Source: an uncultured cyanobacterium (GTDB lineage: Bacteria; Cyanobacteriota; Cyanobacteriia; Cyanobacteriales; CAWCAG01). From it: 64,000 nucleotides of DNA. How positions within the stretch are numbered: position 1 is the first letter of the stretch; each line of letters begins with the position of its first letter. Below are positions 11,134 through 37,568 of the stretch, piece by piece. The stretch lies in the NCBI GenBank assembly GCA_963803805.1, contig CAWDOD010000007.1, positions 174,328 through 238,327 on the forward strand. The letters are read 5' to 3'. A model generated the notes under the pieces. That model was not told the origin of the DNA. It saw nothing but the letters and a program-made list of their open reading frames with translations, and ran no database searches. Both the position numbers and the translations under genes were made by a program.

Positions 11134-11286
11134 CCTTCTAAACAACGGTGATAAGGAAAATTCTCCTAAGCAATCAGCGTTTCTTGTTGTCATCACACTA
11201 TCGCTTAATTCAAAGGCCGCATCATGAGCTTTTCCTAGCATTTGATAGGTTTCTTGACGAAACTTTCTCAATCGTTCATATTTCAT
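11134..11286 (-). pseudogene. N-terminal fragment of an IS701-like (DDE_5-type) transposase
   Basis: MKYERLRKFRQETYQMLGKAHDAAFELSDSVMTTRNADCLGEFSLSPLFRR resembles cyanobacterial transposase N-termini; similarity ends abruptly after about 51 codons. Confidence 0.65.
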
Positions 11287-11377
11287 GGTAGGGAGATTTA
11301 TGTATTTAGATTCCTCTGAATCATTTTCTCCCTCTTTTCCCTTTTTTCTCTACTGTTTTCCCTTCTCTTCCTTTTCG

Positions 11378-12616: not shown

Positions 12617-12886
12617 AATTAATTTCTACACACGCCATAAAACAGCTTATACCATAAGATCTGGTGGTCACGCTTTCCCACTTACCGTAACCTACATTAT
12701 TTGCCAGAAATTGAAAAAATGCCTTTTTCGACGTAAATACCTATGCAAAATGCAAGATTAAGTTTTGTGACAATTGCCTAGAAGTTGCGTAAAACATAGC
12801 AATCTCACCAGAGAACCAGATGAAGGTGAGTAATTCACTTGAATAACCTATGAATAACCTAGAAGTTCTTACATATTCTGGCCAGG

Positions 12887-13525: not shown

Positions 13526-13540
13526 TTAGGAGGTTGAAAA

Positions 13541-14491: not shown

Positions 14492-14524
14492 TTCTAGGTT
14501 GCAAGTATTAGGGTAAAGTGCATT

Positions 14525-16871: not shown

Positions 16872-17623
16872 TATTCAACAATTTGTTTGGCAAGTTTTTA
16901 AGCTTTCATTTAGTAGTTACCTTTCTACTAATCAACACAAATATTGTAGAAGCAAGAGTGTTAAAACCTCAATTAACTAAACCTTCCTATGAATTGAATT
17001 GGTGGGAACATTTTCTTCTTACTGAGGATACAGGACAAGGAACATCAAAAGGACATCCTATAAATACAGGTACTCGTACTCCTTGTGATTATAAACGATA
17101 TCTAGAACCTTTAGTACTAATAGAACCACACTCTAAGACAACCGAATGGCGTTGGGGTTTCACTCGCAATGAATACCCGACTTTTTGGGCTTACATTCCT
17201 TATCAAGCAGACATGATCAAGAAGATCACCTTTTCTTTGCGGGATGAACAAGAGAACATCATCTATGAAACAAACCTAAACAAACCAGAAACCACAGGCA
17301 TCATTAGCTTCACTCTGCCTAACACTGCAAAGCTACTTCCTAAAGGAGAATGGTATAAATGGTATTTATTTGTCGAAGCCAGTTGTAAACCTCAACAAAC
17401 TGCTGAAATGTATGAAACTAGTGCTTGGATACAAAGAAGCGATGACCCTCAAATTCCCGAAACTGAGTTTGTTTACGATCGCCTGACAGACATCGCTAAC
17501 CTTGCAGAAAGTCCCCAGAAGCCACAGCAATGGCAAACATTACTTGAATCACTAGGGTTAGACGAATATACTAACGAACCAATTATTGTAGACTGCTGTC
17601 AACCACTAGAGGAACAAGAGTGA
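16868..17623 (+). CDS. DUF928 domain protein
   Basis: ATG overlaps the upstream stop (ATGA); signal-like N-terminus; PTFWAYIPY, FSLRDE, GIISFTLP, WYKWY, W..LLESLGL. Confidence 0.85.
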   Translation: MIFNNLFGKFLSFHLVVTFLLINTNIVEARVLKPQLTKPSYELNWWEHFLLTEDTGQGTSKGHPINTGTRTPCDYKRYLEPLVLIEPHSKTTEWRWGFTRNEYPTFWAYIPYQADMIKKITFSLRDEQENIIYETNLNKPETTGIISFTLPNTAKLLPKGEWYKWYLFVEASCKPQQTAEMYETSAWIQRSDDPQIPETEFVYDRLTDIANLAESPQKPQQWQTLLESLGLDEYTNEPIIVDCCQPLEEQE

Positions 17624-17667
17624 CAAACAGATTGGGTTGTATTGACACCATTTTCATACATCCGCCT

Positions 17668-18366
17668 CTAAAGCGTATCAGGGTCAATGCCTAAGTCTCG
17701 AAGCTTGTCTAGGGCTTTATTCAGTTTAGCTCTAGCTTGCTCTTCTTGTAAACGAGCCTGATCCCGCTCTACTCGCGCCTGATCCCGCTCCAGCAAACTT
17801 ACTTCGGGTTCAGTAAATGTCTCACCATTGGGATAAAATACAGACAATCCATCCTCAAATAGTTCAAACCGAATCTGCAAAAGGGGCGATGTCCAAGGCA
17901 AATACAATGCAGTAACCAAAGTATAAACATCATTATTCTGTTGGCGTACAAAGCCCCAGAAATCCTTACGCTGAATGTCGTAGTAATAGGCTTCTAAAAC
18001 CCCATATTCTTCATAGAATTTCTGTTTTTCTGCCATTTCCCGACGAGTGTTGCTGGGGGAAAGAATCTCAAACACAACTTGGGGGGCAATCTGTTCTTCC
18101 TGCCATTGTTTATAGCTACCTCGATATCCTTGGGAACGACCTAAAACCACCATCACATCTGGCGCTTGGCATGGGGCAGGGGGTTCTTCCACTTCCACAG
18201 GATACCACAGCAAATCTCCTGCAACAAAGGCCACTTCATCTTTTAGTAAATGTTTGAGATTAGTAACTAGACGGACAATCCATTCATACTGTTCTGTGTT
18301 GTCGGCCATAGGTTTACCGTCAGAATCAGGGTATAGTGTTAAAGGAGAACGAGGAGTTTGAACCAT
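17668..18366 (-). CDS. Uma2 (DUF820) family putative endonuclease
   Basis: YPDSDGKPMADNT, APDVMVVLGR, PQVVFEILSPSNT, FYEEYGVLE. ATG at 18366 preferred over the longer ORF start. Confidence 0.9.
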   Translation of the reverse strand: MVQTPRSPLTLYPDSDGKPMADNTEQYEWIVRLVTNLKHLLKDEVAFVAGDLLWYPVEVEEPPAPCQAPDVMVVLGRSQGYRGSYKQWQEEQIAPQVVFEILSPSNTRREMAEKQKFYEEYGVLEAYYYDIQRKDFWGFVRQQNNDVYTLVTALYLPWTSPLLQIRFELFEDGLSVFYPNGETFTEPEVSLLERDQARVERDQARLQEEQARAKLNKALDKLRDLGIDPDTL

Positions 18367-18472
18367 GAGTCCTTGCAGACGACTGTTGATCGAGGGCAGT
18401 TTAGGTAAAGTTAGTTTATTATAACCCAGTGTTTGGTGGGTATGACACCCTTTCAAGAATAATGGTTGATTA

Positions 18473-21139: not shown

Positions 21140-21304
21140 TGTGATTTGTTCAACTAGTACTCTACCCTCTTCTCTTGTTGTAGTGAGAGATTTTATGCGA
21201 AAGAGAAGAATTGTTTACAAAAGTTGACCAAACAACAGACTTTTACCAGTGGAAGCCTGTACAATGCTCCTTGATATATTTTTAAGTGTATCTACTAGAT
21301 AAAT

Positions 21305-23032
21305 ATGAAATCTTGCCTCGTAGCTAAGTATTTCCTCTCCTATTCGTTTTGTTTGCTATTAACTGGATGGTTTACCACTACCCTTAGTCTTGCCCAAAAC
21401 CCACCACCACCAGAAATAGAACCTCCTTCTACCCGTCCTCAACCTTTGGAATCACCACAAAAGCTGCCTCCACCGGAAGACTTGTTACCTCCTTTACCTA
21501 CTCCTACCCCACCAGACAATCCATCTCTCCCGACAGTTGAAACCTTTGAAGTTAAGGAAATTCAAGTAGAGGGTAGCACATTATTCACCGAAGCAGAGTT
21601 AAAGGAAATCATCGCCCCCTTCCTCAACAAATCCCTATCTCTGCCTGAACTTCAGCAGGTAGCATTAGCTGTAGAGAAATATTACCTTGAGCAAGGATAT
21701 CTTACTTCGGGGGCTTATGTTTCCCGGTTCGACATTGGGGAAGGCATCTTAACTATTCAAGTAGTAGAAGGGGGCATAGAAAAGATTAGAATCACTGGTA
21801 CAAAAAGACTCAATCCTAGCTATATTCGTAGTCGTCTTGCGATCGCTACCACAACTCCCCTCAACAAAGAAAGACTCTTAGAAGCTTTGCAACTCTTGCG
21901 TAGTGATCCTTTGATTGATAGGATCAGGGCTGATTTATTGGATAGTTCCCGCCTCGGACAAAGTATTCTGGAAATTAAAATAACCGAAGCTGATAGTTTT
22001 CGCACCGACTTTAGTTACAATAACCAGCGTTCCCCTAGTGTAGGGACTAATCGTTTAGGTTTGAGTTTCAATGAAGGGAATTTACTAGGATTAGGAGATT
22101 CCCTACGCCTAGGCTACTACCACAGCGAAGGCAGCGACAGTTTAGATTTTGGTTATGAATTACCTATTAATCCCCGTAATGGCAGCATTAGCTTTGCCCA
22201 TGGTACAACCTCAAGTCAGGTAATCGAAGACCCCTTTGCCATCCTAAATATCGAATCAGACTCCCGCTACTACGAAATCAGCCTACAACAACCAGTTAAA
22301 CGCACACCCAGAGAAGAAATGACCCTTGGCTTAACAGCTTCACGCCAGGAAAGTGAAAGTTCTCTTTTAGGTATTGCCATCCCTCTTGCTGTAGGGGCTG
22401 ATGCCCAGGGGCGTGTCCGTGTCTCCACTTTGCGGTTTTTCCAAGAATGGGTAAAGCGTGGAGACAGGGAAGTAATAGCTTTGCGATCGCAGTTTAACTT
22501 AGGAGTAGGGGCAATGTCTGCCACAATCAACGAAGCTGAACCCGATAGTTTATTCTTCTCCTGGCGTTTGCAAGGACAGTGGCTGCGCCTACTTGCACCG
22601 GATACCTTGTTAGTAGTCAGGGGAAATGTACAACTTGCAGACCAAGCTTTACTTAGTTTAGAACAGTTCGGAATAGGTGGGCAAAACACCGTCAGGGGTT
22701 ATCGCCAAGATTTCTTACTTGCTGACAATGCTGCCACCGTTTCTGGGGAATTACGTTGGCCCATTTTACGGGTATCTGATTGGGATAGCGTTTTACAGTT
22801 AACCCCTTTCTTTGACTTTGCCACAGTTTGGAATAATTCTAGGAATCAGGGACAACGTAGGGAATTAAATAATCATAACTTAGCTTCTGTTGGTTTAGGT
22901 TTACGTTGGCAACAGGGGGATAATTTAGCCTTAAGTTTGGCTTGGGGTATTCCTCTGATTAGTGTCGATAGTTCAGAGAATACCTGGCAGGAACAAGGCT
23001 GGCATTTTTCGGTTATTTACAGTCCTTTTTGA
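21305..23032 (+). CDS. ShlB/FhaC/HecB family two-partner secretion outer-membrane protein (TpsB)
   Basis: POTRA-like segments (Y...GY.TSGA; VVEG.IE.I), VRGYRQD motif, C-terminal aromatic F. Confidence 0.93.
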   Translation: MKSCLVAKYFLSYSFCLLLTGWFTTTLSLAQNPPPPEIEPPSTRPQPLESPQKLPPPEDLLPPLPTPTPPDNPSLPTVETFEVKEIQVEGSTLFTEAELKEIIAPFLNKSLSLPELQQVALAVEKYYLEQGYLTSGAYVSRFDIGEGILTIQVVEGGIEKIRITGTKRLNPSYIRSRLAIATTTPLNKERLLEALQLLRSDPLIDRIRADLLDSSRLGQSILEIKITEADSFRTDFSYNNQRSPSVGTNRLGLSFNEGNLLGLGDSLRLGYYHSEGSDSLDFGYELPINPRNGSISFAHGTTSSQVIEDPFAILNIESDSRYYEISLQQPVKRTPREEMTLGLTASRQESESSLLGIAIPLAVGADAQGRVRVSTLRFFQEWVKRGDREVIALRSQFNLGVGAMSATINEAEPDSLFFSWRLQGQWLRLLAPDTLLVVRGNVQLADQALLSLEQFGIGGQNTVRGYRQDFLLADNAATVSGELRWPILRVSDWDSVLQLTPFFDFATVWNNSRNQGQRRELNNHNLASVGLGLRWQQGDNLALSLAWGIPLISVDSSENTWQEQGWHFSVIYSPF

Positions 23033-23064
23033 GAGAATTTGACTGTTTTGAGTGCGATGGCGAA

Positions 23065-23232
23065 ACCCGCCACGGATTAAAATCCATGTCTAGCAGCCTA
23101 AGTCATCTTTAAGATGACTTCCAAACGCTGTAGTCTTCCCCAAGAAAAACTGTAACAAAACTCCTAAAAATTAATCTCCTAGTCATCTTGAGATGACTTA
23201 AGTTGTTAGCCCCGAATTAATTCGCGGGCGGT
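23065..23232. repeat. Palindromic MITE/REP-like element, copy 1
   Basis: Two AGTCATCT..AGATGACT palindromes at 23101 and 23181 plus a GGATT..AATCC hairpin; homologous to 38927-39057. Confidence 0.7.
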
Positions 23233-23341
23233 ATATGAACAAATATTAAGATATCAGTTTCTCTGCATAAAAGTTGCCGCGTTTTCTAGAGAAGAAACTA
23301 GAAACCCATATTTTAATTTACATGAAAGGGAAGCTTCTACT

Positions 23342-24687
23342 ATGAGATTTAAGCACATTGCTTCTTATCTTAGCTACAGCGTGCTAACACTTGGTATTTG
23401 TTCTCTACCAATTCAAACTGCCCAAGCAGGAACTATTCATAACAATTGGAACTATGTTATAGATTCGCCCAGCGACGGTACAGAAAGAACAGGGTTTGGA
23501 TTTAACCCTACTCCTTATCGAGTTGGGGGTTCAGATAACCCCTTTGAAATGTATGGTATGTCCTTGTTGGATTTAGGCGATCGCGTCACAGTTGCCATAA
23601 CAGGTAATATGCCTTTAGGAGGGGTTGATGATCCTTGGGGATATGTCAATGACGGTAATACAGCCTGGGGAGATTTATTTTTCAACTTTACCGGAGAAGA
23701 TATTCCTACTGCTAACACACGGGAGAACCTATTTGCTGTTCGCTTTGCAGCTAATAACGAAGCCGGAGTTAGCGAACTCGGAGTTTACAAAGATATAACT
23801 CTCAAAAATGTTGCTTCAATCAACGATGGCTGGCCTACTGTTGATAGATATATCAATGCTGTTGAGGCAAAAGGCAGTGATCCTTCAATGGGAGATATAG
23901 ATATAAGAAGTGGCTATTTCGGTGAAGAAAGTTACAACGTAATTGACTCTGGTACAAAAGTAGGTGATGTTGAACTCCTTGACTTGCCAGCTTTAACTGC
24001 ATTAGGGTTAGACTTTGAAAATTTTGATGCTGCTGGTTCAGAAACCTTTGGTTTTAGTTTCGCTAAACCAGAAGGCTTTATCGGCAGTTTCATCAGCCAC
24101 ATCGTCACAGAATGTTTCAATGATGGAGTTGCCCTCAAAGGTGCTTTAACCCTTGGAGGCCCTGTTCTTCCTGGCCCAACTCCTGAACCTTGCGTAGTCA
24201 CAGACGGACAAAAAAATCCTCTGCTACCCAGCTTTATTGATGATGAAGGGTGGGCTGTATTTGAAAATGTAGAAAGTGGTCTGTGGTATGACCCTGTTGC
24301 AGAAATGGGTTTTGAGTTTCAGGCACTAGGGGAAACCCGATTTACTGTGATAGAAGACTTCCCTTGTGGTATTTCCGAAGATGATACCTTTGATGTTTAT
24401 GTAGGTTCCAAACCCTATAGGGATCTTGGCCTGATAAAAGCTTAGTTTTTGACTTCCCAGTTAAAGAATTTAAGATTACTTTTCCCCTTGAAGGTGATTA
24501 CGGGCGGGAGACTTTCCCTGTGAAACTTGACTTTGCCACTGCAACAGGAACTTTTAGAATGCGTCAAATCCCACCACCACCGACTCCTCCTGAACCAGAA
24601 AAAATACCTGAACCTGATTCTGTAATGGCAATTCTAGCTTTAAGCCTTTCCGGACTCATTTGGCGATTGAGTCGCAAGAAAGTTTAG
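23342..24687 (+). pseudogene. PEP-CTERM surface protein (N-domain XDD3-like) with a -1 frameshift at about 24430 (real or assembly indel)
   Basis: Signal peptide; adding one C at GGCC (24428-24431) extends the ORF to ...PPEPEKIPEPDSVMAILALSLSGLIWRLSRKKV*, a PEP-CTERM sorting signal ending at 24687. Confidence 0.8.
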
Positions 24688-24767
24688 GATTTTAGGTTTG
24701 TTGCATTTTAATTAGCGGAGGGAGATAGCTTGTAAGTTGGCTATCTCCCTATTAATTGTGTTTTCTA

Positions 24768-27700
24768 TCAATCGTTTCTCAACAAACAACTAGCAAAAGC
24801 CTGAGAAGTCAGTATAATTTCACCATCCGGTAATTCAAACCAACCTTGCACTTCTTGAATCGATTGATCTGAATGAGATTGCTGTGTATCACTTAATGAT
24901 GTAACCGATGTATTCAGACTATCAATACTACTACTCAATGGATCAGAAGGGTTAGAAGGTAAACCAGCCCTGCCGATGTCGATAAAGACAGAATTTTTCT
25001 CTCCATTACTTCCTACAGCACAACCTTCAGGTAAACCTTCATCTAAAAAACGATCATCTAAGGGATTAAGGCGCAGATTGTCATTAACATTGATCTCAAC
25101 AGTACCATCAATTCCTAACTCAGAACTAGCAGTAAAATCGCTTTCAGAGGTGTTAACCTTTTCAAAGAGTCTAAAACCAAAAATCCCTTTTGCTGTAGCA
25201 GTAATATTACCACCTTGACCTTGTAAAGAACTGGCAATAATATCACTATCTTCTGCAAGAATCGCAACAATAAAGTCACCAACTCTCAGGGTCATATTAC
25301 CACCGCTACCTGTACCATTCGCATTGGTCAAAATATCGCTATCCTGGCGCAGAATCACTGATTTATCTACAAAAAGTTGAATGTTACCGCCATTAGCATT
25401 AATTGTTTCTGTTGTCAGCCTTGCACCGTTGGTCATATTAACAGATTCTGCATTGACTAGTATGTCCCCTGCATTACCTGAGTTGTTACCACTAAGATTA
25501 ACTTGCCCACCATTTTCTATGTTTAACAGCTTTGTATTAATTTCAATACCTTGGGCATTACCAGAACCAGAAGAAGCAAAGACAAGACGACTAGCTTGAC
25601 CACTATTGGCTACACCACTTACTTTCACTAAGTCTGAAGCATTAACAACTAAAGTTCCGCCTTGACCATCGCTAACAGTGGATGCGGATACTTCCCCTCC
25701 ATCTTCAACCAGTAATTGACTGGTGTTAATGACAAAATTACCTGCATTGCCACCACCAAAAGTATCTGATGATAAACCACTTCTAACCTGACCATTAGGG
25801 GTAGTACCTACAACTTTTACAAACTCTGAAGCATTAATAACAACATTTCCAGCTTGTCCTTGTCCTGATGTCGAGGCAAAAATCCTTGCACCTTCTTGAA
25901 GGGTTAATTGCTTAGTATTAACTGTTAAATTTCCGGCATTTCCTGTACTTGTTGCCCCTAAAAATATGCCGCTAAAGTTAGCATTGTTAACTGGATTAAA
26001 ATCGTTACCGATCAAAGTAGCTGACTCGCTGGCATTAACAGTTATTGTCCCCCCTGTTCCTGTACCTTGACTAAAAGCAGAAACGAAAGAACCATTTTCT
26101 AGTTGCAAAGTCTTAGCTTGCATATCAATAACTCCTGCATTGCCATCACCGTTAGTGTTGACGAAAATAAAGCCTCTGTTTAAAGATATACCTTGTTCTG
26201 CGGTTAGAGTAATTTGTCCTGAATCTCCGTTACTGCCTAGGCTATTCATGTCAGCAATGTCACTATTAGCATAAATACCAGAAGTGTTTTCAATATTAAT
26301 TTCTTGAGCATCAACACTGATATTTCCTGCTGTTGCTGTACCGATTATTGCCGTTGTACCAGCAGTCCTTGCAGATAATTCTGCACCATTTTGCAAGGTA
26401 AAACTGCCACCACTACTAAGATTAATATCACCTCCTTTCAGAGTAGATGTGTCTGTATAACTCTCATTAAAAATTCCTTGAGATAATACCAAAGGCGCGT
26501 CGCTGTGGACTCGGACATTGCCTCCCAGTAATCCTCTAGCAAGAATCTCTGCATTAGTAGTAAGTGTTCCTGTTCCTAAGATAGTTACATCGCCACCATT
26601 ACCACCGTAAGTATTAAGTGGTAAACCTCCTCCTATATTTTGATCAAGGGCAGAAGCATTTATACCACCTTGCAAAGTTGTATCTCCCCGTGAATCAATC
26701 TGTATAGAACCCCCTCCCTGTACTTCTCTAGTATCTATAACTCCATTAACTGCAATTCCTCCCGGTAAGCTATTAGGAAAGAATTGATTTGTTAAAACGA
26801 CTCTACCTCCGTCACTACCAGCAAACCCAAAAGCAGTAACAATTTCTCCCGTGGTAATATTGGCATTTGCTAGAGGTGTAGAAAATCTAGGCGGTGGGTT
26901 AGCAGTAAAGAAAGAATTACCATCAATTACACTGTTGTCAGGAGTAGGAATCCCCCCTAAAGCGTTCCAATCAATGCCTGCCCGTATGTCTAAGGTTGGT
27001 CTAGCATTACCATTAATCGTCGGGACTGCTGTACCATCTGATAAATTAAAGTTTGCTAAATCACTATAGGTTGTAGTTGCGTTAATATTGTTTGTATTTC
27101 CAGGGTTAATAGAGTTATTTCCTGTTTCTAAATTATCAATTAATACATCGCCTAAAGCGACGCTACCTCCAGCTAGAATATGCAAAGAAGCACCCTGATA
27201 ATCCCCTAAAATCACATCCCCAGAAGTAATAATTATTGGATCATCAGGACTAAATAAATCTCCTAAACTCCCATCTAATTTCTCCACACGAAAATTCCCC
27301 CCACTCCAATAATGGGCATCACCACCCACTGCATTACCAGAACGCAAAGTTAAATCTCCCCCAGCAAACAAACCACTATCAGGATGATTCAGGGCAAAAA
27401 TATCCACTTTCTCATCACCCTGGACCAACAACTCTCCTCCCGCAGCAGCTACAAAAGGGTTAGTAACACTATCCCTAATCTTCACTTCGTTTGTCGCCAC
27501 TAAGTTAACATCACCGCCACCTTGTACTTCACCAGTTAAATCTAAATTCCGTCCTACCAAGGTTAAATCTTGCCCCACAAGTAACTTACCTCGGTTAACA
27601 ATTTCCGCACGGGGAACATTGTTTCCATACTGCAAACCAGGACGTATATTAACTGTTAAAAGAGGAGGTGCATCGGGATTAGTAGCACTAAATTCTCTCC

Positions 27701-28136
27701 CATTTTCTAGCAACAAACTATCAGCAGTGCTAACGAAAAAAGACCCAGCAATATCTAAACGGGCATTTTCGCCAAAGAAGACACCGTTAGGATTAATTAA
27801 GAATAAATTTGCCGTACCGTCAACCCCTAAAGTACCTAATATTTCTGAGGGATTGTTACCAGTTACGCGGGTTAATATATTGTTGATTGCTGCTGGATTT
27901 TCAAAGTAAACCCGTTGCAATTCCCCGACATTAAACTGACTGAAACTGTGAAAAAGATTAGTACCACGAATAGCGCCGCCAGTGATTAATTCTCCTGGTA
28001 GGCCCTTGATTTGGGTATTGTTGATGATTTGGGAGTTTTCTTGTCCCAAGGTTGCATCAGGGGTGATTTGGGCTTGCAGAGGAGAAGCAGAGAAGAGGGT
28101 TGTAGTGAGTAGTAATAAGGTGGTTAGTTTGGACAT
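24768..28136 (-). CDS. Filamentous haemagglutinin N-terminal domain protein (TpsA-like)
   Basis: AQITPDATL, NLFHSFSQFNV, NILTRVTG, ANLFLINPNG; Gly/Asn-rich beta-helix repeats; C-terminal ITASSELG-like and GRAGLP motifs. Confidence 0.93.
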   Translation of the reverse strand: MSKLTTLLLLTTTLFSASPLQAQITPDATLGQENSQIINNTQIKGLPGELITGGAIRGTNLFHSFSQFNVGELQRVYFENPAAINNILTRVTGNNPSEILGTLGVDGTANLFLINPNGVFFGENARLDIAGSFFVSTADSLLLENGREFSATNPDAPPLLTVNIRPGLQYGNNVPRAEIVNRGKLLVGQDLTLVGRNLDLTGEVQGGGDVNLVATNEVKIRDSVTNPFVAAAGGELLVQGDEKVDIFALNHPDSGLFAGGDLTLRSGNAVGGDAHYWSGGNFRVEKLDGSLGDLFSPDDPIIITSGDVILGDYQGASLHILAGGSVALGDVLIDNLETGNNSINPGNTNNINATTTYSDLANFNLSDGTAVPTINGNARPTLDIRAGIDWNALGGIPTPDNSVIDGNSFFTANPPPRFSTPLANANITTGEIVTAFGFAGSDGGRVVLTNQFFPNSLPGGIAVNGVIDTREVQGGGSIQIDSRGDTTLQGGINASALDQNIGGGLPLNTYGGNGGDVTILGTGTLTTNAEILARGLLGGNVRVHSDAPLVLSQGIFNESYTDTSTLKGGDINLSSGGSFTLQNGAELSARTAGTTAIIGTATAGNISVDAQEINIENTSGIYANSDIADMNSLGSNGDSGQITLTAEQGISLNRGFIFVNTNGDGNAGVIDMQAKTLQLENGSFVSAFSQGTGTGGTITVNASESATLIGNDFNPVNNANFSGIFLGATSTGNAGNLTVNTKQLTLQEGARIFASTSGQGQAGNVVINASEFVKVVGTTPNGQVRSGLSSDTFGGGNAGNFVINTSQLLVEDGGEVSASTVSDGQGGTLVVNASDLVKVSGVANSGQASRLVFASSGSGNAQGIEINTKLLNIENGGQVNLSGNNSGNAGDILVNAESVNMTNGARLTTETINANGGNIQLFVDKSVILRQDSDILTNANGTGSGGNMTLRVGDFIVAILAEDSDIIASSLQGQGGNITATAKGIFGFRLFEKVNTSESDFTASSELGIDGTVEINVNDNLRLNPLDDRFLDEGLPEGCAVGSNGEKNSVFIDIGRAGLPSNPSDPLSSSIDSLNTSVTSLSDTQQSHSDQSIQEVQGWFELPDGEIILTSQAFASCLLRND

Positions 28137-28179
28137 GGTAGAGTTTTTCTATGAAGATTAGTTGAAATGAAATTATGCT

Positions 28180-28270
28180 GTAGGGACGGCCTGCTTGCGT
28201 TATTTTTGTACCTCACAAACCGATAAGATTGGGTGATCTTTTCGGGGATTATTGGTGGGGAGGGGGACGT
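28180..28270. repeat. Degenerate partial REPIN-like copy
   Basis: GTAGGGACGGCCTG followed by TTATTTTTGTACCTCACAAACC..., shared with the 142-bp elements. Confidence 0.7.
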
Positions 28271-28412
28271 GTAGGGGCGACCCGCCTACGTTGTTTTTGT
28301 ACCTCACAAACCAATAAAATTGGGTCGCCCTTTCGGGGTTTATGGGTAGGGAGGGCGACCCAAGATGATTTGTTTTTGGGTTGCCAAAGTTATGTCAACG
28401 GGTCGCCCCTAC
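28271..28412. repeat. 142-bp REPIN-like element (left of RAYT)
   Basis: Bounded by inverted GTAGGGGCGACCCG / CGGGTCGCCCCTAC, with an internal inverted pair TTGGGTCGCCCT / AGGGCGACCCAA. Confidence 0.85.
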
Positions 28413-28942
28413 GGATTGGGATGGGCGATCGCTTGGATATTCATTGAATCCGTTGCCCAGTCCAGAGGATTATTGACAATGTAAGCTCGGATTTTTTCTA
28501 AAGCAAATTCGTCGGGAATAATTCGGTCATAAAAGTTTCTTTGCCATACTTGTAACTGGGAATTTCTGTTCGCAATTCTCCATTTTTTGGTAACTTGAGA
28601 CTTGAACTGCCCAATGATGGCGCTTACAGAATTAGCTGTGGGGCCATTTCTTATTTGAGAAATAGGTTTAGGGAGAGGAAACTTTCTATTAATAATCATG
28701 ATGCCATGAAAATGATTGGGCATAATAACATAGCTATCTAACTCAATGTAAGAACGTACTTTAGGAGTTATAAGCCATTCATGTTCTACAATTTTGCCAA
28801 GGGGAGAAAGTTGTACTAATCCGGCCACAATTTTGCTAAGAGTGCATTCTTTGCGGTAGGTACAAATAGTAATAAAGTAAGCTCCCGATTGAGTATAATC
28901 ATATCCCGGTAAACGACGGGAAGAACGATGGTAGTTAGACAC
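28409..28942 (-). CDS. REP-associated tyrosine (Y1/HUH) transposase, RAYT-like
   Basis: RLPGYDYTQSGAYFITICT, MPNHFHGI (HUH), WQRNFYDRII, IRAYIVNNP. Its stop codon lies inside the flanking REP. Confidence 0.9.
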   Translation of the reverse strand: MSNYHRSSRRLPGYDYTQSGAYFITICTYRKECTLSKIVAGLVQLSPLGKIVEHEWLITPKVRSYIELDSYVIMPNHFHGIMIINRKFPLPKPISQIRNGPTANSVSAIIGQFKSQVTKKWRIANRNSQLQVWQRNFYDRIIPDEFALEKIRAYIVNNPLDWATDSMNIQAIAHPNP

Positions 28943-28975
28943 AATTTTTGGTGATTATTTTTGATTAATTATGCT

Positions 28976-29117
28976 GTAGAGGCGACCCGCCTACGTTATT
29001 TTTGTACCCCACAAACCGATAAAATTAGATGTTTTTTCGGGGATTATTTGGTGGGGAGGGCGACCCAATATGATTTATTTTTAGGTCGCCAAGGTTATGT
29101 CAACGGGTCGCCCCTAC
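28976..29117. repeat. 142-bp REPIN-like element (right of RAYT)
   Basis: GTAGAGGCGACCCG ... CGGGTCGCCCCTAC; same length and orientation as 28271-28412. Confidence 0.85.
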
Positions 29118-29209
29118 GGATTGTTGGGTGGTGTGCGTAAGCGTAGCCATGCCGGAGGCTTATCGTACAGGTGACAATTTAAAAATATACCCATCATCAA
29201 AATCATGTT

Positions 29210-29290
29210 GTAGGGGCGACCCGCCTACGTTATTTTTGTACCCTACAACCGATAAAATTGGGTCGCCCTTTCGGGGTTTATGGTTGGGGC
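29210..29290. repeat. Truncated REPIN-like copy
   Basis: GTAGGGGCGACCCGCCTACGTTATTTTTGTACC...TTGGGTCGCCCTTTCGGGGTTTATGG matches the 5' half of the 142-bp element. Confidence 0.8.
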
Positions 29291-29296: not shown

Positions 29297-32200
29297 TTAA
29301 ACTCCAGGAACACGGATATAGCGATCAGGATTACTCGCTGTGTAATCAACAATTCGGTGTAGTGTACCTGCCCCACCACCATCAAAATTAGTGTTGTAGT
29401 GTGATTCTGAAAGAACAACTCGTTTGACTCCATTTTGGTAGTAAGTTTTCTCAACTACAGCTACATGATTTTGACCATTCCTTGTCCATTGTGCAATATC
29501 ACCTGGTTGAGGATCGCTAACGATATACGCTCCATTGGATAGCTGATAGTGCCATTGGTTTGCATTGCCTGACATTGAGTTTAAAGCGGCAGGATTACCT
29601 CCTAATTCTTTCACGCGCCCGTGCGCGTACCAAGTACAATTACCTTCAGTTCTACTGTATCCATCAACTAAATTTGAGCCATAACTTGCCTGGGAAAAAA
29701 TATTTCCTGTTGTGTAAAACTGAGGACGAGCTTTGAAATAGTTTACTCCTTGCTGAGTAAGTAGAGGTGTTTTAACAGTACCTCCGCCTCCACCTCCACT
29801 ATCTCCGCTACCTTCACTTATATAATAAGCAGCAACATAACCCACCTGACCATTAGCTTCAATCTCATACCAATCAGTCCGATTACCTGGATAATAAGCA
29901 CCACCAGAAACTTGCTTGCGAATTGTCACCGCAGTTCCTTTAGGTAACTTGCCAATAATAGTAGAACCACTAACAGAAGGTTTGTTGCGGAAATTGAGAG
30001 AAACATTACCTACATTAGCATTAACATGACCTTTCTTCGTAGTATTGCCAGGATCGGAACTGCCACCGGGTTGAATAGGAGGCTTAGAATTGGGATAGCC
30101 GAAAATGTAAGCACTGGGAACCCAATAAGCTTTACCATCACGCCAGTAACGATACCAGAGAGCATCAGGCTTATCAGTCCAAATATCATTAACAGACTCC
30201 CCGTAAGTCCAGCCATCGAAATGCAAAGTCTTTTTGTAAGGTTCAGCTAAACCACTGCGGTCTTCATGCTTAGGGCTATTACGCAAAGCTACGCCAATAC
30301 TAGGCCCTACCCAACCGGAGAAATTCTCCGCACGAAAATCAGTTGGTTGAGAAACAATATCGACATAGTAGGCAGCGACAAAACCTTGCTGCCCATCTAC
30401 CTCGACTTTGTACCACTCATCACTTAAACCATTCTCGTAACTTTTTCCTTTGACAGACTCCAAAACCTTCAAAGTTTTTCCTTTAGGAAGCTGGCCAATC
30501 AGATTATCTCCTCTTACTTCAGGAGAAGTTCGGAAATTGAGAGGGTCATTTCCTACTTTAGAATTAACCACACCAGATTTAGGTGGTGCAGGCTGAGGTT
30601 GAGGCTTGGGACTAGGGGGAGGGTTGGAACCAGTTGCGCTACCTGTGAAGAATTTCTCAATGCCACGGGCAATAGCATGACCCGCTTTTTCTACATTGCC
30701 ACGGCTCATCCCTGGTGCATCAATAAACAAAGATTCTGTGAGAACGGCAGGAACCCCTAAAGGAGCATTGCGTAATACAGATAAATCTTTTGTTTTTACT
30801 CCCCGATTAGGAATCTCGTTATCAGGAAAGACAGCATCTAGTTCACTGTTGACAGCTTTAGCTAGTTCAGAATCAGCACTGGGTGCATTGGGATGAGAAT
30901 AAACTTCGTGGCCTTGGGCATCCTTGTTAAAGGCATTGAGATGCAAAGAAACAAACAGATCGTATCCAGCAGCCCGTTGACCAATCTGTGCTAAGGATAT
31001 AGCTTCATCAAGGATTTTTACCTCTGCACCGAGTTGGCGTAGGTGTTCAGCAACAATTTTTGCTTGGTGTAAGTTTTCTGTTGCTTCATTTGTACCATTA
31101 CCACCAGCACCAGGATCGAACCCTGTATCAGTAATACCATGGCCTGGATCGAGGATAATCTTTTTACCAGCGAGGGTATTAGTATTTGGAACTGGAAAGT
31201 TTTGGAAAACAGCACGTTCCCAAGGAGTAGTTGGTTCTTTCCCGATAGGAGGAGTTTGCTGCAATTTGGGGTTGTATACTTCTGGGTCAACGGTTCTTGC
31301 CAAACTAACTGCCGCAGCAATGTTTAGCAATCCTGCCCCTGTTTCTAAATCTTCTCCTAACTCGTTTATATCTGCTGCTGTAGATTTGAGGATGTCAATT
31401 ACTTGGCGATAATTCAAATTAGGGTTCGCAGCCCAAACTTGAGAGGCAGCCCCCGTTACCTTCGCGGTAGCAACAGAAGTACCAGCCATTGTCCCTACAC
31501 CATTACCAACAGTAGATACGACTGGAGTTTCTAAGTTGCCACCATTAGCAACAATGTCCAACCCTTCGCCATGATTTGAATATTCAGCCCGATCAAAGCC
31601 TTGCCAAACAGAAGTTTCACCACTAATTTGTTCTGCTGAACCTACGGTAATAACGTTATCAAAATGCTGAGAAGCTTGTCCCAAAGCTGACATAACTTCA
31701 CCCTCATTTCCTGCGGCAACGGCAACGAGAACATTGTTTTGACGGGCATATTCTAAAGCTGCCATTTCTGAGGGGGTAAACTCATAACGGGTGGTTTCTA
31801 CACCATCAATATCAATTTGAGTTAAATCAAAGCTTAGATTTGCGATTCCATTAGGTTGCCCCGACTCCCTAGCTGCATCTACAAACTCCATTAAAGATTC
31901 CGCCCATTCACCTGAACCAACAGCCCTTCCTAACCAAAGGGGTGCATCATCATTGATACCATCAATCCCAATATCATTATCATTCTGGGCTGCGACAATA
32001 CCTAAAACATGAGTACCATGTTCATTGCCTTCTCCTGGGGTTAGCAAAGGGTTAGCATCGTTGGCAATCTTATCTGTTCCTAAACTAATTTTTTCATAGT
32101 CTAAGTCAGGATTATCACCACTAAATCCAGTATCAATAAAGCCAATCAGAGGTTGGTCTTCAACAGGGAAATTATAATCGGTAACAGGAGGATCTACTTG

Positions 32201-33097
32201 AGGGTTAGCATATTCTAAAATAGCTTCCCCTAAATCGCTGTCTCGCCACTCTTTCCCCTCTTCAATGACATTATCTAGTAATTCAGCTTCTCCGGTTGCC
32301 CCACGTACTTGGAAAATTAAATCGTTGTAATCCCTATCAGAGTTATCATCAACCCGCCAGTCTTCCATCACAAAGGTGTTGCCATCCCCCGTTACATCAG
32401 CAATTTGTCCTAAATGGAAAGCATCATCAGGGTTGGCTGTAGCCACAGAGAAAAGAGGACGCAAATTACCTTTGTCAGGATTATCGAGAAACTCTTCTAC
32501 AGTGCCGTTAGGAATAAGCATAAAACCGAAGCGATCGCCCGGCTTCATTTTTACAGGATCTCCTTGTTGATAAATACCAGAGTTACGATCAGCTTCTCCT
32601 AATTCCCCGGAAAATTTTGCCCCTTCAGTAGCATCAGAAATAACAACATGACCTAATTCAGAATCACTCAAAGCTCGGTTAGCAGCTTCAAAACTAAAGT
32701 CTTCCGACTCTGGGTTCAACCCTTCTAAACTAAAGATGGCTAACTCTCCTTCGTAACCACCACCATCAAAGAGGAAGTCAACGGTTACTTCCCCAGTGTC
32801 CCCAACAGTAAAAACCCCTGAGTCGAAGTTGGGGGAAGAGATATCAGCTATTTCAGCTATTTGATCTGTTTCGAGTTCATCAAAGAAGCTAATCGGCTCT
32901 AATTCTTCATCGCTAAAGTCTTGGTCTATTTCTGCTAAAGGATCAATATCTTCTGGTAGATCAACGTCGAAGAGGGCTAAGTCAACCCCGTCATCACCGC
33001 CATCTAATAGCCCACTGGGGGTAAGAATTGGTTCTAAAATAAAGGCTTGAATTTTGGATTTGCCAGAACGAGAAGAGTTATTTTCAGGTAGTGCCAT
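29297..33097 (-). CDS. Multidomain secreted hydrolase: DUF4114-like, S8 subtilase, Amidase_3, SH3-like x3, CHAP
   Basis: FVMEDWR..SDRDYNDLIFQV (DUF4114-like); S8 triad IDTG / EHGTHV / GTSVA; amidase DPGHG, SLHLNA, LTESLF; SH3b-like LNFR..P....WY; CHAP GNCTWY and HVAVVE. Confidence 0.85.
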   Translation of the reverse strand: MALPENNSSRSGKSKIQAFILEPILTPSGLLDGGDDGVDLALFDVDLPEDIDPLAEIDQDFSDEELEPISFFDELETDQIAEIADISSPNFDSGVFTVGDTGEVTVDFLFDGGGYEGELAIFSLEGLNPESEDFSFEAANRALSDSELGHVVISDATEGAKFSGELGEADRNSGIYQQGDPVKMKPGDRFGFMLIPNGTVEEFLDNPDKGNLRPLFSVATANPDDAFHLGQIADVTGDGNTFVMEDWRVDDNSDRDYNDLIFQVRGATGEAELLDNVIEEGKEWRDSDLGEAILEYANPQVDPPVTDYNFPVEDQPLIGFIDTGFSGDNPDLDYEKISLGTDKIANDANPLLTPGEGNEHGTHVLGIVAAQNDNDIGIDGINDDAPLWLGRAVGSGEWAESLMEFVDAARESGQPNGIANLSFDLTQIDIDGVETTRYEFTPSEMAALEYARQNNVLVAVAAGNEGEVMSALGQASQHFDNVITVGSAEQISGETSVWQGFDRAEYSNHGEGLDIVANGGNLETPVVSTVGNGVGTMAGTSVATAKVTGAASQVWAANPNLNYRQVIDILKSTAADINELGEDLETGAGLLNIAAAVSLARTVDPEVYNPKLQQTPPIGKEPTTPWERAVFQNFPVPNTNTLAGKKIILDPGHGITDTGFDPGAGGNGTNEATENLHQAKIVAEHLRQLGAEVKILDEAISLAQIGQRAAGYDLFVSLHLNAFNKDAQGHEVYSHPNAPSADSELAKAVNSELDAVFPDNEIPNRGVKTKDLSVLRNAPLGVPAVLTESLFIDAPGMSRGNVEKAGHAIARGIEKFFTGSATGSNPPPSPKPQPQPAPPKSGVVNSKVGNDPLNFRTSPEVRGDNLIGQLPKGKTLKVLESVKGKSYENGLSDEWYKVEVDGQQGFVAAYYVDIVSQPTDFRAENFSGWVGPSIGVALRNSPKHEDRSGLAEPYKKTLHFDGWTYGESVNDIWTDKPDALWYRYWRDGKAYWVPSAYIFGYPNSKPPIQPGGSSDPGNTTKKGHVNANVGNVSLNFRNKPSVSGSTIIGKLPKGTAVTIRKQVSGGAYYPGNRTDWYEIEANGQVGYVAAYYISEGSGDSGGGGGGTVKTPLLTQQGVNYFKARPQFYTTGNIFSQASYGSNLVDGYSRTEGNCTWYAHGRVKELGGNPAALNSMSGNANQWHYQLSNGAYIVSDPQPGDIAQWTRNGQNHVAVVEKTYYQNGVKRVVLSESHYNTNFDGGGAGTLHRIVDYTASNPDRYIRVPGV

Positions 33098-33344
33098 TTT
33101 AATTATCTGGTAAGAAAAATCAAATTTGCTGTCTTACCTTCTTCTCAGGGTGATAAACCACTATTTATGCACTGAGATACATTTCTTTACAATCAGAGCC
33201 TTTAACCCATAACTTCAGTAAAAGTATAGTTTTGTAACAAAATCGGTAATTGTGCATAAAAGACTAGGGGTCAGACCTGAGAACAAATAGAAGGCTCAAC
33301 TAATTCCATAACTAACCATCTGTTTTCTCTTGCCATAACCAACC

Positions 33345-34539: not shown

Positions 34540-35973
34540 ATGGCTGATTATAGTAACTGGATTTGCCCTGATATTAGACCCTACTGGAAACTAGTGAGGG
34601 AAAAGAATTCTCAGCAATTAGTCCTTGCTGCAATTCAGGGGGAAGCTAAACATTTTCTCTCTGCAACTGAAGCCTATGCTTTACGATACTTTGTCGGCAA
34701 ACTTACTGTAGTCCAAGTACAAAAGAACTGCAACAAGAGGCTGCAAACTGCTGCTTCCCCTAACTTGGTAACAGAATTAATAGCAAAACTGATTAAGCTT
34801 GAGGTTATTTCCTTGGAAAGTGATTCGGAGTTGGCAAAGCCTCAAAGTCCCCAATCACATCAACTTAAACCCTGTTTACAATGGGTTAAACCTGCCCCAG
34901 AATATTGGATTTTGCGTAACCCGGAAGATGTTACCTTTCTCCAGTTTGATAACCGTAGTAAGGAAGCGGTTGAACAAATTGGGCAAATACCTCCCCAGGA
35001 GATTGTTCATCGGTTTGACATCACTCCCCAAGAGTTACAATACCTGCTGCAAATACTGGCAGCAACGGGGATGTTAGCTGGAACCCATCCTGGTAAACCG
35101 AAAAAAGGTAAGTTTCATCCTATGCAACTACTATTTTTTAAGCTTAAACTCTTCAATCCCGATCCTTGGTTGACTAATGGGGTTAAATACTTGCAGTGGA
35201 TTTGGACTTCCGCTTTCAGTTTCATACTTTGCATTTTCTTAGGATTATCAGGGGCAGTAGGATTTAATCAACGGCGGGAAATTCTCCACCAAGGGCAGGA
35301 ATTGTGGTTAAGATCAGGAACTTCCTTGCTCTTCTGGTTTGCAGTTCTTTCTTTAACAGTGGTAGCTTTGCATGAACTTGGCCACGCTTTTACCCTTAAG
35401 CATTATGGGGGCATTGTTCCGGAAGTTGGCTTACTCTTCATGTGCCTCTTTCCTGCTGCCTATACCAACACCAGTGATTCCTACTGCTTGCCTAAATTTA
35501 AGCGTGTTTTAGTTGTGGGGGCGGGGATAATTGTACAAGTTACTTTAGCTGCGGTGGGTTTGTTATTCTGGCACATTTCCCTTCCTGGAACCTGGTTGCA
35601 TACTGGTAGCTTTCTCCTTATGGCTGGGGCTTTATTCACTGTCACCATTAATCTTAATCCTTTAGCTAAGTTCGACGGCTATTACCTCGCCGTTGCAGCT
35701 ACAGGCATCAACAACCTCCGCAGCCGTGCCTTTGGTTTGTATGGTAACTTGCTCCGGTTGCAACCGATACAAGAAACCTGGCGCGATCGCCTGATTTTAG
35801 CAGTCTATGCCCCTTTTAGTCTTGTTTATATTTGGTTTGTGTTCGGTTTCCTTTTTTATCGCTTAGGAGACTGGATTTTAAGCAATGTACCCATGACAGC
35901 CCTGATTTTGCTAATTATCTGGGCAATTTATTTTTACTTTCCTCGCTCCTCCACTGCAAAATCAGAGAGCTAG
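34540..35973 (+). CDS. M50 (site-2 protease fold) membrane protein with two N-terminal PqqD/RRE-like domains
   Basis: HELGH at 35371-35385, NLNPLAKFDG, multiple TM helices. Two repeats of about 75 aa with a beta-beta-beta/helix-helix-helix pattern ending LIKLEVI and LAATGML. Confidence 0.8.
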   Translation: MADYSNWICPDIRPYWKLVREKNSQQLVLAAIQGEAKHFLSATEAYALRYFVGKLTVVQVQKNCNKRLQTAASPNLVTELIAKLIKLEVISLESDSELAKPQSPQSHQLKPCLQWVKPAPEYWILRNPEDVTFLQFDNRSKEAVEQIGQIPPQEIVHRFDITPQELQYLLQILAATGMLAGTHPGKPKKGKFHPMQLLFFKLKLFNPDPWLTNGVKYLQWIWTSAFSFILCIFLGLSGAVGFNQRREILHQGQELWLRSGTSLLFWFAVLSLTVVALHELGHAFTLKHYGGIVPEVGLLFMCLFPAAYTNTSDSYCLPKFKRVLVVGAGIIVQVTLAAVGLLFWHISLPGTWLHTGSFLLMAGALFTVTINLNPLAKFDGYYLAVAATGINNLRSRAFGLYGNLLRLQPIQETWRDRLILAVYAPFSLVYIWFVFGFLFYRLGDWILSNVPMTALILLIIWAIYFYFPRSSTAKSES

Positions 35974-35982
35974 AAACAGGTA

Positions 35983-36003
35983 TTACCTATTACCCATTAC
36001 CTA
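35983..36003. repeat. STRR-type heptamer array (TTACCTA x3, one variant)
   Basis: TTACCTA TTACCCA TTACCTA immediately before the HlyD start codon. Confidence 0.7.
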
Positions 36004-36005
36004 TC

Positions 36006-37568
36006 ATGAATAACCCAAACTTGCCTCAAAACACACCAAAGTTTCGTGTTGTCCCCTCTAAAACGACCAAAAAACCACAACCCCAAACTCCTCCTCCAGA
36101 ACCTCAAGATAAACAAGTTGCAGAAGCAGTTAATTCTAATCAGGGTAGGAAAAAATTAGTTATTCTAGGGGGCATCTGCTTGGGATTAGGAATTCTTGCT
36201 TTGATTCCCATACCTAATTATGTTACTGGCAAAGCGGAAATAACCTCCCGTGTTAATGCCCGACAACGCTTGACAATGCCCGTTGATGGCATTGTGGAAA
36301 TTAAGGTAGAAAGTAACGAAGAAGTGCAAAAAGGAGATGTTATTGCTACAATTGATAGTCCTGAATTAGATAAAGAAATTGCCCAAGCAAACCGTTCCCT
36401 CAAGGAAGCTAAAGGGGAACTAACGGCAGCTAAAAATCAATTAAGTTTGAGTAAAAGCCGCTTAAATCTCGCCCAGCAAGAAGAAGCGATCGCAACTTCT
36501 CAAGTAACTAGGGAACATCGACAGTATGGTGATGCCCCTAAGTTACGTCAATTTGATTATGAACAAGCCGGCATACAGGAGGAGATTACAGGGGTACAGA
36601 GTGAGATAGTTGGTATTAACAGTCAAGTTGTTGCTACTAAAAATAAAATTGTCGGATTGCAAGGAGAAATTGCCGGTTTAACCCAACAGCTAAGTAATGT
36701 AGAAGAACGTATCCAAGCGAGAGAATATGTGTCAACTCAAGGAGGCTTAGCAAGATTAGATCAAGAAACGGCAGCTTTGAAGATACAAAGAACTGAGTTA
36801 AATAACGATATCAGCCAAAAACGCCACCAAATCATCAACCATGAACAAGAAATTGTCCAAATTCAAAGTCAAATTAAACAACGGCAAAGTGTAATTGCTA
36901 GCAAGTCCAAAGATATTAATTCCCTATCTGAACGAAGCAAGGATGTTAATCACGAATTGGGAGATGATTTGAATAGTTATGAAAATAGTTTAACTCTTAA
37001 AGCTGCTCAAAGAGACACTGCAACCAAAGATTTTGAGGCAACAGTAGCCCAGGTGAATAGTAAAACTCAGTTGGTAGAACAGTGGGAAGATGAGGTGGCA
37101 AGGTTAGAGGCACAAAAGAATAATTTGACCTTAATTGCCGAAACTCCAGGGACTGTAATTACCCAAGAGATAGACTTAACCAGTAATAGTAGCCTCCAAG
37201 CAGGGGAAGATATTTTAGAAATAGCAGATTTGAAGCTTTTAGAGGCTAAGGTTGCAGTACGTCAAGAAGATCATAACTTGGTTCAGGAAACCCAAACTGT
37301 TACCTTCCAACCCAAAGATGCTAAGAGTTCCCGTTACAAAGCTAAAGTGCAGGAGAAAGATTCTATCATCATCGTCGAAAATCCTGGAGAGAGTCCCAAG
37401 TTAGGAGTAAGAATCTTGATTGAGAATGATAATAAGTTACTGTTACCAGGGGGTGAAGGTTATGCCCATATTAAAACTGGCAAGATGCCTATTTATAAAA
37501 AAGTTAACCATGAGTTGAGTAAGTTAATTGATTTGGGTAAATATTTCCCTTGGTTAACTGGTGAATGA
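36006..37568 (+). CDS. HlyD-family membrane fusion (periplasmic adaptor) protein
   Basis: Single TM helix, lipoyl-like VQKGDVIATIDSPEL, long coiled coil, AETPGTVIT, GEDILEIAD, LLPGGEGYAHI. ATG at 36006 preferred. Confidence 0.88.
   Translation: MNNPNLPQNTPKFRVVPSKTTKKPQPQTPPPEPQDKQVAEAVNSNQGRKKLVILGGICLGLGILALIPIPNYVTGKAEITSRVNARQRLTMPVDGIVEIKVESNEEVQKGDVIATIDSPELDKEIAQANRSLKEAKGELTAAKNQLSLSKSRLNLAQQEEAIATSQVTREHRQYGDAPKLRQFDYEQAGIQEEITGVQSEIVGINSQVVATKNKIVGLQGEIAGLTQQLSNVEERIQAREYVSTQGGLARLDQETAALKIQRTELNNDISQKRHQIINHEQEIVQIQSQIKQRQSVIASKSKDINSLSERSKDVNHELGDDLNSYENSLTLKAAQRDTATKDFEATVAQVNSKTQLVEQWEDEVARLEAQKNNLTLIAETPGTVITQEIDLTSNSSLQAGEDILEIADLKLLEAKVAVRQEDHNLVQETQTVTFQPKDAKSSRYKAKVQEKDSIIIVENPGESPKLGVRILIENDNKLLLPGGEGYAHIKTGKMPIYKKVNHELSKLIDLGKYFPWLTGE

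Follow-up and report, generated by a model that had tools for sequence, protein, structure and literature searches.

The window considered here is the whole 64,000-nucleotide stretch of contig CAWDOD010000007.1 (positions 174,328 to 238,327 of the forward strand; assembly GCA_963803805.1) from an uncultured cyanobacterium. Positions 29297 to 33097 of this window hold exactly one open reading frame (ORF), on the reverse strand, which encodes 1266 amino acids followed by a stop codon and is the subject of this report. Pfam recognizes DUF4114, Peptidase_S8, Amidase_3, two stretches of SH3_3, and CHAP in the product, each well over its gathering score. The start codon is backed by an identical start (MALPEN...) in a syntenic orthologue at L021, a locus from the metagenome-assembled genome of an uncultured cyanobacterium. 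A preliminary description of the sequence had proposed a single polypeptide in which a subtilase, a zinc amidase, a CHAP domain, and three SH3-like binders are separated by proline- and glycine-rich linkers. The single frame and the Pfam matches for all three enzymes bear this out, profile support having been the check proposed for the claimed domains, and the linkers are real, with nine prolines in residues 814–850 and eight glycines in residues 1095–1112. Absent from that description were residues 1–275, which hold a DUF4114 module preceded by a leader-like motif and an acidic linker. This overlooked N-terminal carrier region is the defining part of the protein family. The modules of the protein are as follows.

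29297 to 33097, reverse strand: the whole ORF, a modular and putatively exported lysin (ORF call, Pfam)
33011 to 33097, reverse strand: residues 1–29, basic N terminus and leader-like core FILEPILTPSG (motif conservation in homologues)
32822 to 33010, reverse strand: residues 30–92, acidic linker with 23 Asp/Glu and no Lys/Arg (composition)
32273 to 32821, reverse strand: residues 93–275, β-rich constant module ending in DUF4114 (Pfam, model)
31298 to 32155, reverse strand: residues 315–600, S8 subtilase, the last constant module (Pfam, alignment, fold)
31160 to 31297, reverse strand: residues 601–646, boundary linker (identity drop, pLDDT below 50, break in L021 DNA homology at 31295)
30659 to 31159, reverse strand: residues 647–813, Amidase_3, an N-acetylmuramoyl-L-alanine amidase domain (Pfam, alignment)
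30584 to 30658, reverse strand: residues 814–838, proline-rich linker (composition)
30353 to 30583, reverse strand: residues 839–915, SH3b domain 1 (Pfam SH3_3)
30086 to 30352, reverse strand: residues ~916–1004, predicted SH3b domain 2, divergent and family-specific (hhalign, AlphaFold2, Foldseek)
29810 to 30037, reverse strand: residues 1021–1096, SH3b domain 3 (Pfam SH3_3)
29762 to 29809, reverse strand: residues 1097–1112, glycine-rich linker (composition)
29300 to 29761, reverse strand: residues 1113–1266, CHAP cysteine peptidase/amidase (Pfam, alignment)

Family members have the leader, the DUF4114 module, and the S8 domain in common. Mean pairwise identity is 50–70% up to a family motif, TWSGEG.VTP.ERAV, that sits 86–89 residues past the catalytic serine of the S8 domain, and then falls to ~10%. 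The window protein carries a degenerate copy of this motif, TTPWERAV (residues 623–630), within the linker of residues 601–646, which is predicted to be disordered. The exchangeable cargo past this sharp boundary consists here of the muramoyl-L-alanine amidase, three SH3b domains, and CHAP.

The L021 locus is syntenic with the window: HlyD, M50, and GT4 genes are divergent to the family gene, and REP elements and TpsA lie downstream of it. Its 1662-residue protein (9743–14731) starts identically and is 85% identical to the window protein over residues 1–612, after which it continues with a WD40-like region, LGFP, one SH3_3 domain, and an M23 peptidase. The S8 domain of the L021 protein has a 14-residue deletion directly before the catalytic serine, and the ERAV boundary motif is missing. 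At the DNA level, the two loci are collinear at 80% identity from 37564 to 31295 (~residue 601, the end of S8). There is no L021 homology across the amidase, SH3b-1, and SH3b-2, nor across CHAP, and homology resumes for 245 bp over SH3b-3 (30033–29790), the sole cargo segment that the two proteins have in common (70% identical in amino acids and 80% in nucleotides). Because homology breaks on both sides of SH3b-3, at least two cassettes have been replaced, with SH3b-3 as the shared joint. Cassette swapping between syntenic orthologues is demonstrated by this pair.

The same pattern extends through the family. More than 747 relatives came up in a protein search, and 452 in the species-representative genomes that were scanned. 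The best 79 of these 452 loci, selected by constant-region similarity alone, are cyanobacterial without exception and come largely from filamentous genera; Symploca, Coleofasciculus, Lusitaniella, Spirulina, Lyngbya, Leptolyngbya, Nostoc, Planktothrix, and Roseofilum are among them. The cargo of 119 homologues includes CHAP (44), M23 (43), Amidase_3 (17), and lipase (4), and more rarely phage lysozyme (3), C39_2 (3), GH108 (2), and Ntox44 (2); the Ntox44 toxin domain of one relative, P0025, was verified. Two types of cargo enzyme occur together in 29 of the 119 homologues, seven of which pair Amidase_3 with CHAP as in the window protein. SH3_3, LysM, LGFP, PPC, and lectin modules serve as binders on the cargo side. 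The suggestion in the preliminary description that the C-terminal modules may be swappable between strains is thus upheld, both by the varied cargo of the 119 homologues, which have the N-terminal half in common, and by the unrelated cargo of L021. Presence of the family is patchy: among 251 genomes of the class, a DUF4114-module query matches 47, or 20 if only strong matches are counted. Copies of the module number up to eight per genome. Databases label family members only as "S8 family serine peptidase," and our literature searches found no paper describing the family.

All catalytic residues in the window protein were placed by alignment to solved structures, and the S8 Asp/His/Ser, amidase His/Glu/His/Glu, and CHAP Cys/His residues that had been claimed from inspection all align to solved enzymes. 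In the Amidase_3 domain (PF01520, E 7e-24, 85 bits against a cutoff of 27), His653, Glu671, His719, and Glu788 align with the conserved His/Glu/His/Glu of Cwp6 (5j72); the alignment to AmiA (8c2o) covers the first three. This domain lacks the ~45-residue insert of AmiA (AmiA ~132–178, the autoinhibitory helix region), as does Nostoc AmiC2. Absence of an AmiA-type insert suggests that the amidase is of the unregulated, lysin type. The CHAP domain (PF05257, residues 1150–1231, E 2e-12, 48 bits against a cutoff of 26) has Cys1154, His1211, and Glu1231 aligned with 2k3a and PcsB. Its nucleophile, Cys1154, is the only cysteine in the 1266 residues.

Between the two enzymes, the count of three SH3-like binders holds, although they are not equally easy to recognize. 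Two are found by Pfam as SH3_3 (E 3e-19), and the third, at residues ~916–1004, emerges from hhalign, an AlphaFold2 model, and Foldseek. In isolation this segment is not matched by Pfam, and when PDB sequences were searched with a profile, nothing better than SH3 matches below threshold came back. Aligned by hhalign with the SH3_3 domains of the family, it scores 87% (E 4e-6). The AlphaFold2 model is a six-stranded β domain (pLDDT 97.2), and all but two of its top 23 Foldseek matches in the PDB are SH3b or SH3-like wall-binding domains or lysins that contain one, including PlySb, lysostaphin, ALE-1, and the phage 2638A endolysin (probability 0.98–1.0, TM score 0.53–0.67, E 0.008–0.14). Model and alignment support a third SH3b wall-binding domain here. 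A module of this type occurs in 63 of 120 relatives.

In its cargo half the protein has the usual architecture of a lysin, and the question is what it acts on. The preliminary description had offered either a secreted bacteriolytic weapon or a remodeler of sheath or wall. We favor the former, because the family is polymorphic, its distribution is patchy, and relatives carry toxin and lipase domains as cargo; the idea of a remodeler fares worse. We therefore read the gene as encoding an exported, polymorphic bacteriolytic effector, a modular lysin of filamentous cyanobacteria that is built like a polymorphic toxin, and we place the probability of this reading at about 60%.

The main rival is a self-directed filament autolysin or wall remodeler, acting on the cell's own peptidoglycan or sheath, for example when trichomes break, necridia form, hormogonia are released, or the sheath is turned over. 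The Amidase_3 domain does resemble Nostoc AmiC2 (5emi, E 1.6e-7), a step that depends on HlyD could end in the periplasm, where peptidoglycan is located, and the family is restricted to filamentous cyanobacteria, a restriction that is also compatible with a filament-specific morphogenetic role and in that respect counts against an effector. There is also a weak match to the model of the hormogonium tapered-terminus morphoprotein TftA (NF050040), but it reaches 18 bits against a cutoff of 500 and involves the amidase domain only, and we rejected this assignment. Wholesale replacement of cargo between syntenic orthologues, and family-wide variation that takes in lipase and Ntox44, would be atypical for a conserved morphogenetic enzyme, and the patchy occurrence in 47 (20 by strong matches) of the 251 genomes and a copy number ranging from one to eight point the same way. 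Besides this one, the genome holds five Amidase_3 loci, among them a tandem at C11:588–591 kb, and we assume that an AmiC-like housekeeping role falls to these five. Given these observations, we consider the autolysin explanation unlikely.

Because every module of the protein is degradative, it could also be a cocktail of exoenzymes that digests dead-cell debris in mats for nitrogen and carbon and has no role in killing. Hosts of the family are mostly mat-forming or benthic genera, and lipases, lysozymes, and lectins occur in the relatives. Rapid turnover of cassettes and the toxin-type Ntox44 cargo, however, point to conflict rather than digestion, and lysins that attack intact walls typically carry SH3b domains for targeting. 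Scavenging of this kind cannot be cleanly told apart from predation; as an account of the family it seems to us improbable, more so than an autolysin.

The amidase cassette itself leads to phage-type proteins. It recurs at 74% identity in P0128 (L102, 66–3206) and P0130 (L103, 3019–6159), and P0122 is a carrier-less copy; most matches to the cassette are fragments of the same family. P0128 and P0130, of ~1040 amino acids, combine a GH19-like endolysin domain with Amidase_3 and M23 and adjoin Phage_Mu_F (MuF), an SNase gene, and a TPS-domain gene. They are phage-type triple lysins that have a cassette in common with the family. P0122 (L100, 10001–12490) is an 829-residue, cargo-only protein with Amidase_3, SH3_3, lectins, and M23; it starts just past the family boundary region, and no carrier gene is called upstream of it. 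This shared cassette, together with an Amidase_3-SH3b-CHAP architecture that is that of a phage lysin, might suggest that the gene arose when an endolysin from a prophage or tailocin happened to be joined to a host protease, and that no export route is dedicated to its product. Phage genes are absent from the flanks of the gene, however, chromosomal synteny is conserved, and hundreds of genomes have a fusion of carrier to cargo, with its leader and its linkage to M50 and HlyD conserved. A chance fusion is by far the least probable of the explanations considered.

As judged from sequence, the carrier of such an exported effector would consist of a basic tip with the FILEPILTPSG leader, the acidic linker, DUF4114, and an S8 domain of active type. 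No Sec or Tat signal was found at the N terminus, and the 1266-residue protein has no transmembrane or hydrophobic segment, the Kyte-Doolittle maximum being 1.16. Lack of a Sec signal, the single cysteine, and lack of a transmembrane segment were taken as indications of an extracellular protein. Among the 120 listed homologues, about three quarters have FILEPILTPSG or something close to it, and so do 47 of the 50 complete members from the genome scan. Cleavage at a double glycine by a C39 peptidase was considered and rejected, as the Gly-Gly that follows the leader is not conserved among homologues. The acidic linker, 63 residues long here, is of variable length and low complexity in the homologues.

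The DUF4114 domain proper spans residues 184–266 (Pfam E 1e-25), and its module carries a DRDYND motif of the Ca-binding type. Ca-dependent sugar binding has been proposed for DUF4114 in Myxococcus PilY1.1 (PMC9109919), and mannose binding was shown experimentally for the DUF4114 domain of the Acanthamoeba mannose-binding protein (PMC11934332). By analogy, residues 93–275 are probably a lectin-like glycan binder. Four genomes (G054, G073, G169, and G218) encode ~1022-residue proteins made of four to five tandem modules of ~210 residues that contain DUF4114; these proteins have neither leader nor S8, and M50 is absent from the same genomes.

The S8 domain (PF00082, residues 315–589, E 1e-31, 110 bits against a cutoff of 21.8) has Asp322, His360, Asn464, and Ser541 aligned with Asp32, His64, Asn155, and Ser221 of subtilisin BPN′, and all 40 of the family members aligned keep its catalytic motifs unchanged. 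A fold search with a model of residues 85–640 returned subtilisins only (E 1e-16) and was uninformative for the DUF4114 module. Two more specific assignments were rejected on scores: the type VII secretion system mycosin model (TIGR03921; 95 bits against an equivalog cutoff of 278.75) and membership in the PatA/G family. A second leader-bearing member is present in the same genome, outside the window, at C9:49767–59265. It consists of a 375-residue ORF with leader and DUF4114 module, a gap of ~930 nucleotides, and a 2482-residue frame in which the S8 motifs are degenerate (IGFLDFTG, EHGENT), and it looks like a copy that is broken or has a dead protease.

A candidate route for export lies on the other side of the divergent promoter region, where the following features are found.

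33098 to 33344, no strand assigned: divergent promoter region, shared with the GT4, M50, and HlyD genes (86% identical to L021)
34540 to 35973, forward strand: M50-like intramembrane protease with an HExxH motif, resembling daptide/RiPP leader peptidases (NF041824)
35832 to 37568, forward strand: HlyD-family periplasmic adaptor (profile match)

The M50 protein matches the daptide_HExxH model (NF041824) of systems for ribosomally made, post-translationally modified peptides (RiPPs) with E 2e-37 and 129 bits, below the equivalog cutoff of 300; its N-terminal region gives weak winged-helix matches only. The HlyD adaptor is weakly similar to the HlyD of NHLP bacteriocin systems. Its listed TTG start overlaps the M50 gene by ~140 nucleotides (35832–35973). 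The gene has its first ATG near 36005, and translation probably begins downstream of the listed codon. We regard the M50 protein as the probable leader-processing partner of the lysin and the HlyD adaptor as its probable export partner.

Linkage of these genes to the family recurs. An M50 homologue is found in 35 of the 79 loci that were chosen by the constant region. Among loci of at least 18 kb, M50 is within 10 kb in 22 of 35 (63%) and HlyD is present in 17 of 35, and M50 is near 18 of the 25 leader-bearing members that have at least 6 kb of sequence on both sides. The contrast of M50 adjacency between leader-bearing and leaderless members has no power, with ~2–3 leaderless members. Across the 251 genomes, the M50 query matches 22, and 18 of these are among the 47 matched by the DUF4114-module query (Fisher p 1.5e-11); of the 20 genomes with strong matches, 17 also have M50 (p 3e-19). 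These p values ignore phylogenetic relatedness, and the co-occurrences span 11 family-level groups. Four genomes have M50 only, and every one of them is a fragmented assembly. M50 matches number one to two per genome. What is found, a conserved N-terminal leader with a genomically linked protease of the leader-peptidase type, is the combination expected of a RiPP-type leader and its M50 leader peptidase. Secretion of the lysin is plausible on these grounds, the conserved leader and the linked M50-HlyD pair standing in place of a Sec signal.

Other features of the neighborhood are less regular. GT4, which lies beside the M50 and HlyD genes, was rejected as a core component, as it is present in only 3–4 of 80 loci. 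The promoter region is more similar to L021 (86%) than is the flanking coding DNA (80%) and contains a palindrome, TTTTGT-T-ACAAAA (33230–33242), that is conserved with L021; it may be the site of a shared regulator. A RAYT (IS200-like Y1) transposase with flanking REP/REPIN copies occupies 28170–29290, directly downstream of the lysin gene, and related REP copies lie downstream of the L021 orthologue (14748–17231). REP/RAYT elements may be involved in rearrangements at the 3′ end of the lysin gene. TpsA/TpsB, CHAT, DUF1822, and DUF928 genes were also observed (12887–28136 in the window, and at L009, L013, L018, L021, and other loci). This system accompanies family genes in ~18–22 of 80 loci and makes up a second recurrent neighborhood.

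How an exported effector of this design might work can be outlined from its parts. The linked M50 membrane protease, of RiPP type, would recognize the leader and cut it off, and the protein would exit the cell with the HlyD adaptor, via a putative further transporter. Outside, DUF4114 could bind glycans of the surface, the sheath, or the target, as the domain literature suggests, and the SH3b domains could dock on peptidoglycan. The amidase and CHAP domains, whose active sites are intact, would then each cleave a different bond in the peptide stem or cross-link, and exposed walls of competitor or prey bacteria would be lysed. The S8 domain, which invariably sits just ahead of the variable part, could process or release the cargo or could strip surface proteins. 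Self-processing by S8, raised in the preliminary description, is suggested by precedent: subtilisin is among the in-protein processing proteases of polymorphic toxins (PMC3482391), and a secreted S8 protease activates the BetaH-Ntox35 toxin of Staphylococcus aureus extracellularly (PMC9424270, PMC13556192).

Several observations weigh against this picture. Neither a recurrent ABC or inner-membrane transporter nor a TolC-like channel was found near family genes in 80 loci, so that the export machine is incomplete as described. No recurrent small-ORF or immunity cluster was found beside family genes in the same loci, although diverse immunity genes could escape clustering, and no orphan cassettes were found downstream; both orphan cassettes and immunity genes are usual in classical polymorphic toxins. 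No catalytic cargo is recognized in 30 of the 119 homologues. The boundary motif is degenerate in the window protein and absent from L021 and thus cannot be a universal S8 cleavage site, and the S8 motifs themselves are degenerate in some relatives and in the C9 paralogue. Finally, the peptidoglycan of Gram-negative bacteria is out of reach for external lysins without help.

A broader proposal is that of a whole effector system, in which the leader (ILEPILTPSG) would direct proteins to an M50 leader protease and HlyD export apparatus dedicated to them; one M50-HlyD pair would serve up to eight paralogues with different cargo in a genome, and once they are outside, their own S8 would release the exchangeable wall-degrading part. 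Such a system would comprise polymorphic lysins and toxins of 1000–2500 residues and would be undescribed in filamentous cyanobacteria. We put this forward tentatively, with less confidence than the effector reading on which it builds. If these readings are correct, mat- and bloom-forming cyanobacteria would have a widespread and experimentally unstudied antibacterial arsenal, with 452 relatives in species-representative genomes, and the principle of the polymorphic toxin would reach secreted multi-enzyme lysins. DUF4114 and an in-cis S8 would gain defined roles, and a RiPP-type leader together with a membrane protease would provide a route for exporting very large proteins. Nature has in this family also assembled a library of lysin modules that lend themselves to recombination (amidase, CHAP, M23, lysozyme, and SH3b variants), with junctions that are pre-tested.

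Overall, the protein combines features of several known systems. Its cargo half is like that of lysostaphin, ALE-1, the staphylococcal CHAP-amidase-SH3b endolysins, and Clostridioides difficile Cwp6, with Amidase_3, CHAP or M23, SH3b, and flexible linkers. Catalytic residues are conserved with these modular Gram-positive and phage lysins, and the SH3b-2 model superposes on the SH3b domains of lysostaphin and ALE-1. Those lysins, however, lack the 600-residue leader-DUF4114-S8 carrier, rely on Sec signals or holins, and are not cyanobacterial. With daptide and related RiPP leader-peptidase systems (NF041824; PMC10036551), the family has in common a homologous neighboring membrane HExxH protease, a short conserved N-terminal motif, and an adjoining HlyD-type adaptor. 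It differs in that there are no modification enzymes and in that the presumed substrates are proteins of 1000–2500 residues with folded enzyme domains, not short peptides.

An S8 domain without an I9 prodomain, associated with a polymorphic antibacterial effector, is also a feature of the S8 polymorphic toxin systems of Firmicutes (PMC9424270), such as S8-Ntox35 of S. aureus (PMC13556192). In those systems the effector is diffusible, and extracellular S8 cleavage activates the toxin (PMC9424270, PMC13556192). There, the S8 protease is separate and Sec-secreted, its substrate is a BetaH-toxin fusion, and an immunity gene accompanies them, whereas here S8 is fused in cis and there is no Sec signal. 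Pfam found no BetaH domain, and no immunity gene recurs in the 80 loci.

The closest parallel is with polymorphic toxin systems in the definition of Zhang et al. (2012, PMC3482391), in which a conserved N-terminal trafficking region or stalk is joined to a sharply bounded, recombining C-terminal effector. The hallmark of such systems, close homologues with a common N-terminal region and unrelated C-terminal effectors past a sharp boundary, is found here. So are an in-protein, putatively processing protease just upstream of the variable part, cargo of the peptidoglycan-degrading, lipase, and Ntox kinds, adhesion modules of the lectin, SH3, and LysM kinds, and several paralogues per genome. Unlike those systems, the family is restricted to filamentous cyanobacteria, has no immunity gene or orphan cassettes found beside its genes, and often carries two enzymes plus binders rather than a single toxin domain. 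Moreover, where polymorphic toxins travel by type II, V, VI, or VII secretion systems or by PVC, here a novel leader is linked to M50 and HlyD. The polymorphic toxin system is thus the closest concept for this family, which adds to it a trafficking signal of a kind not listed for such systems.

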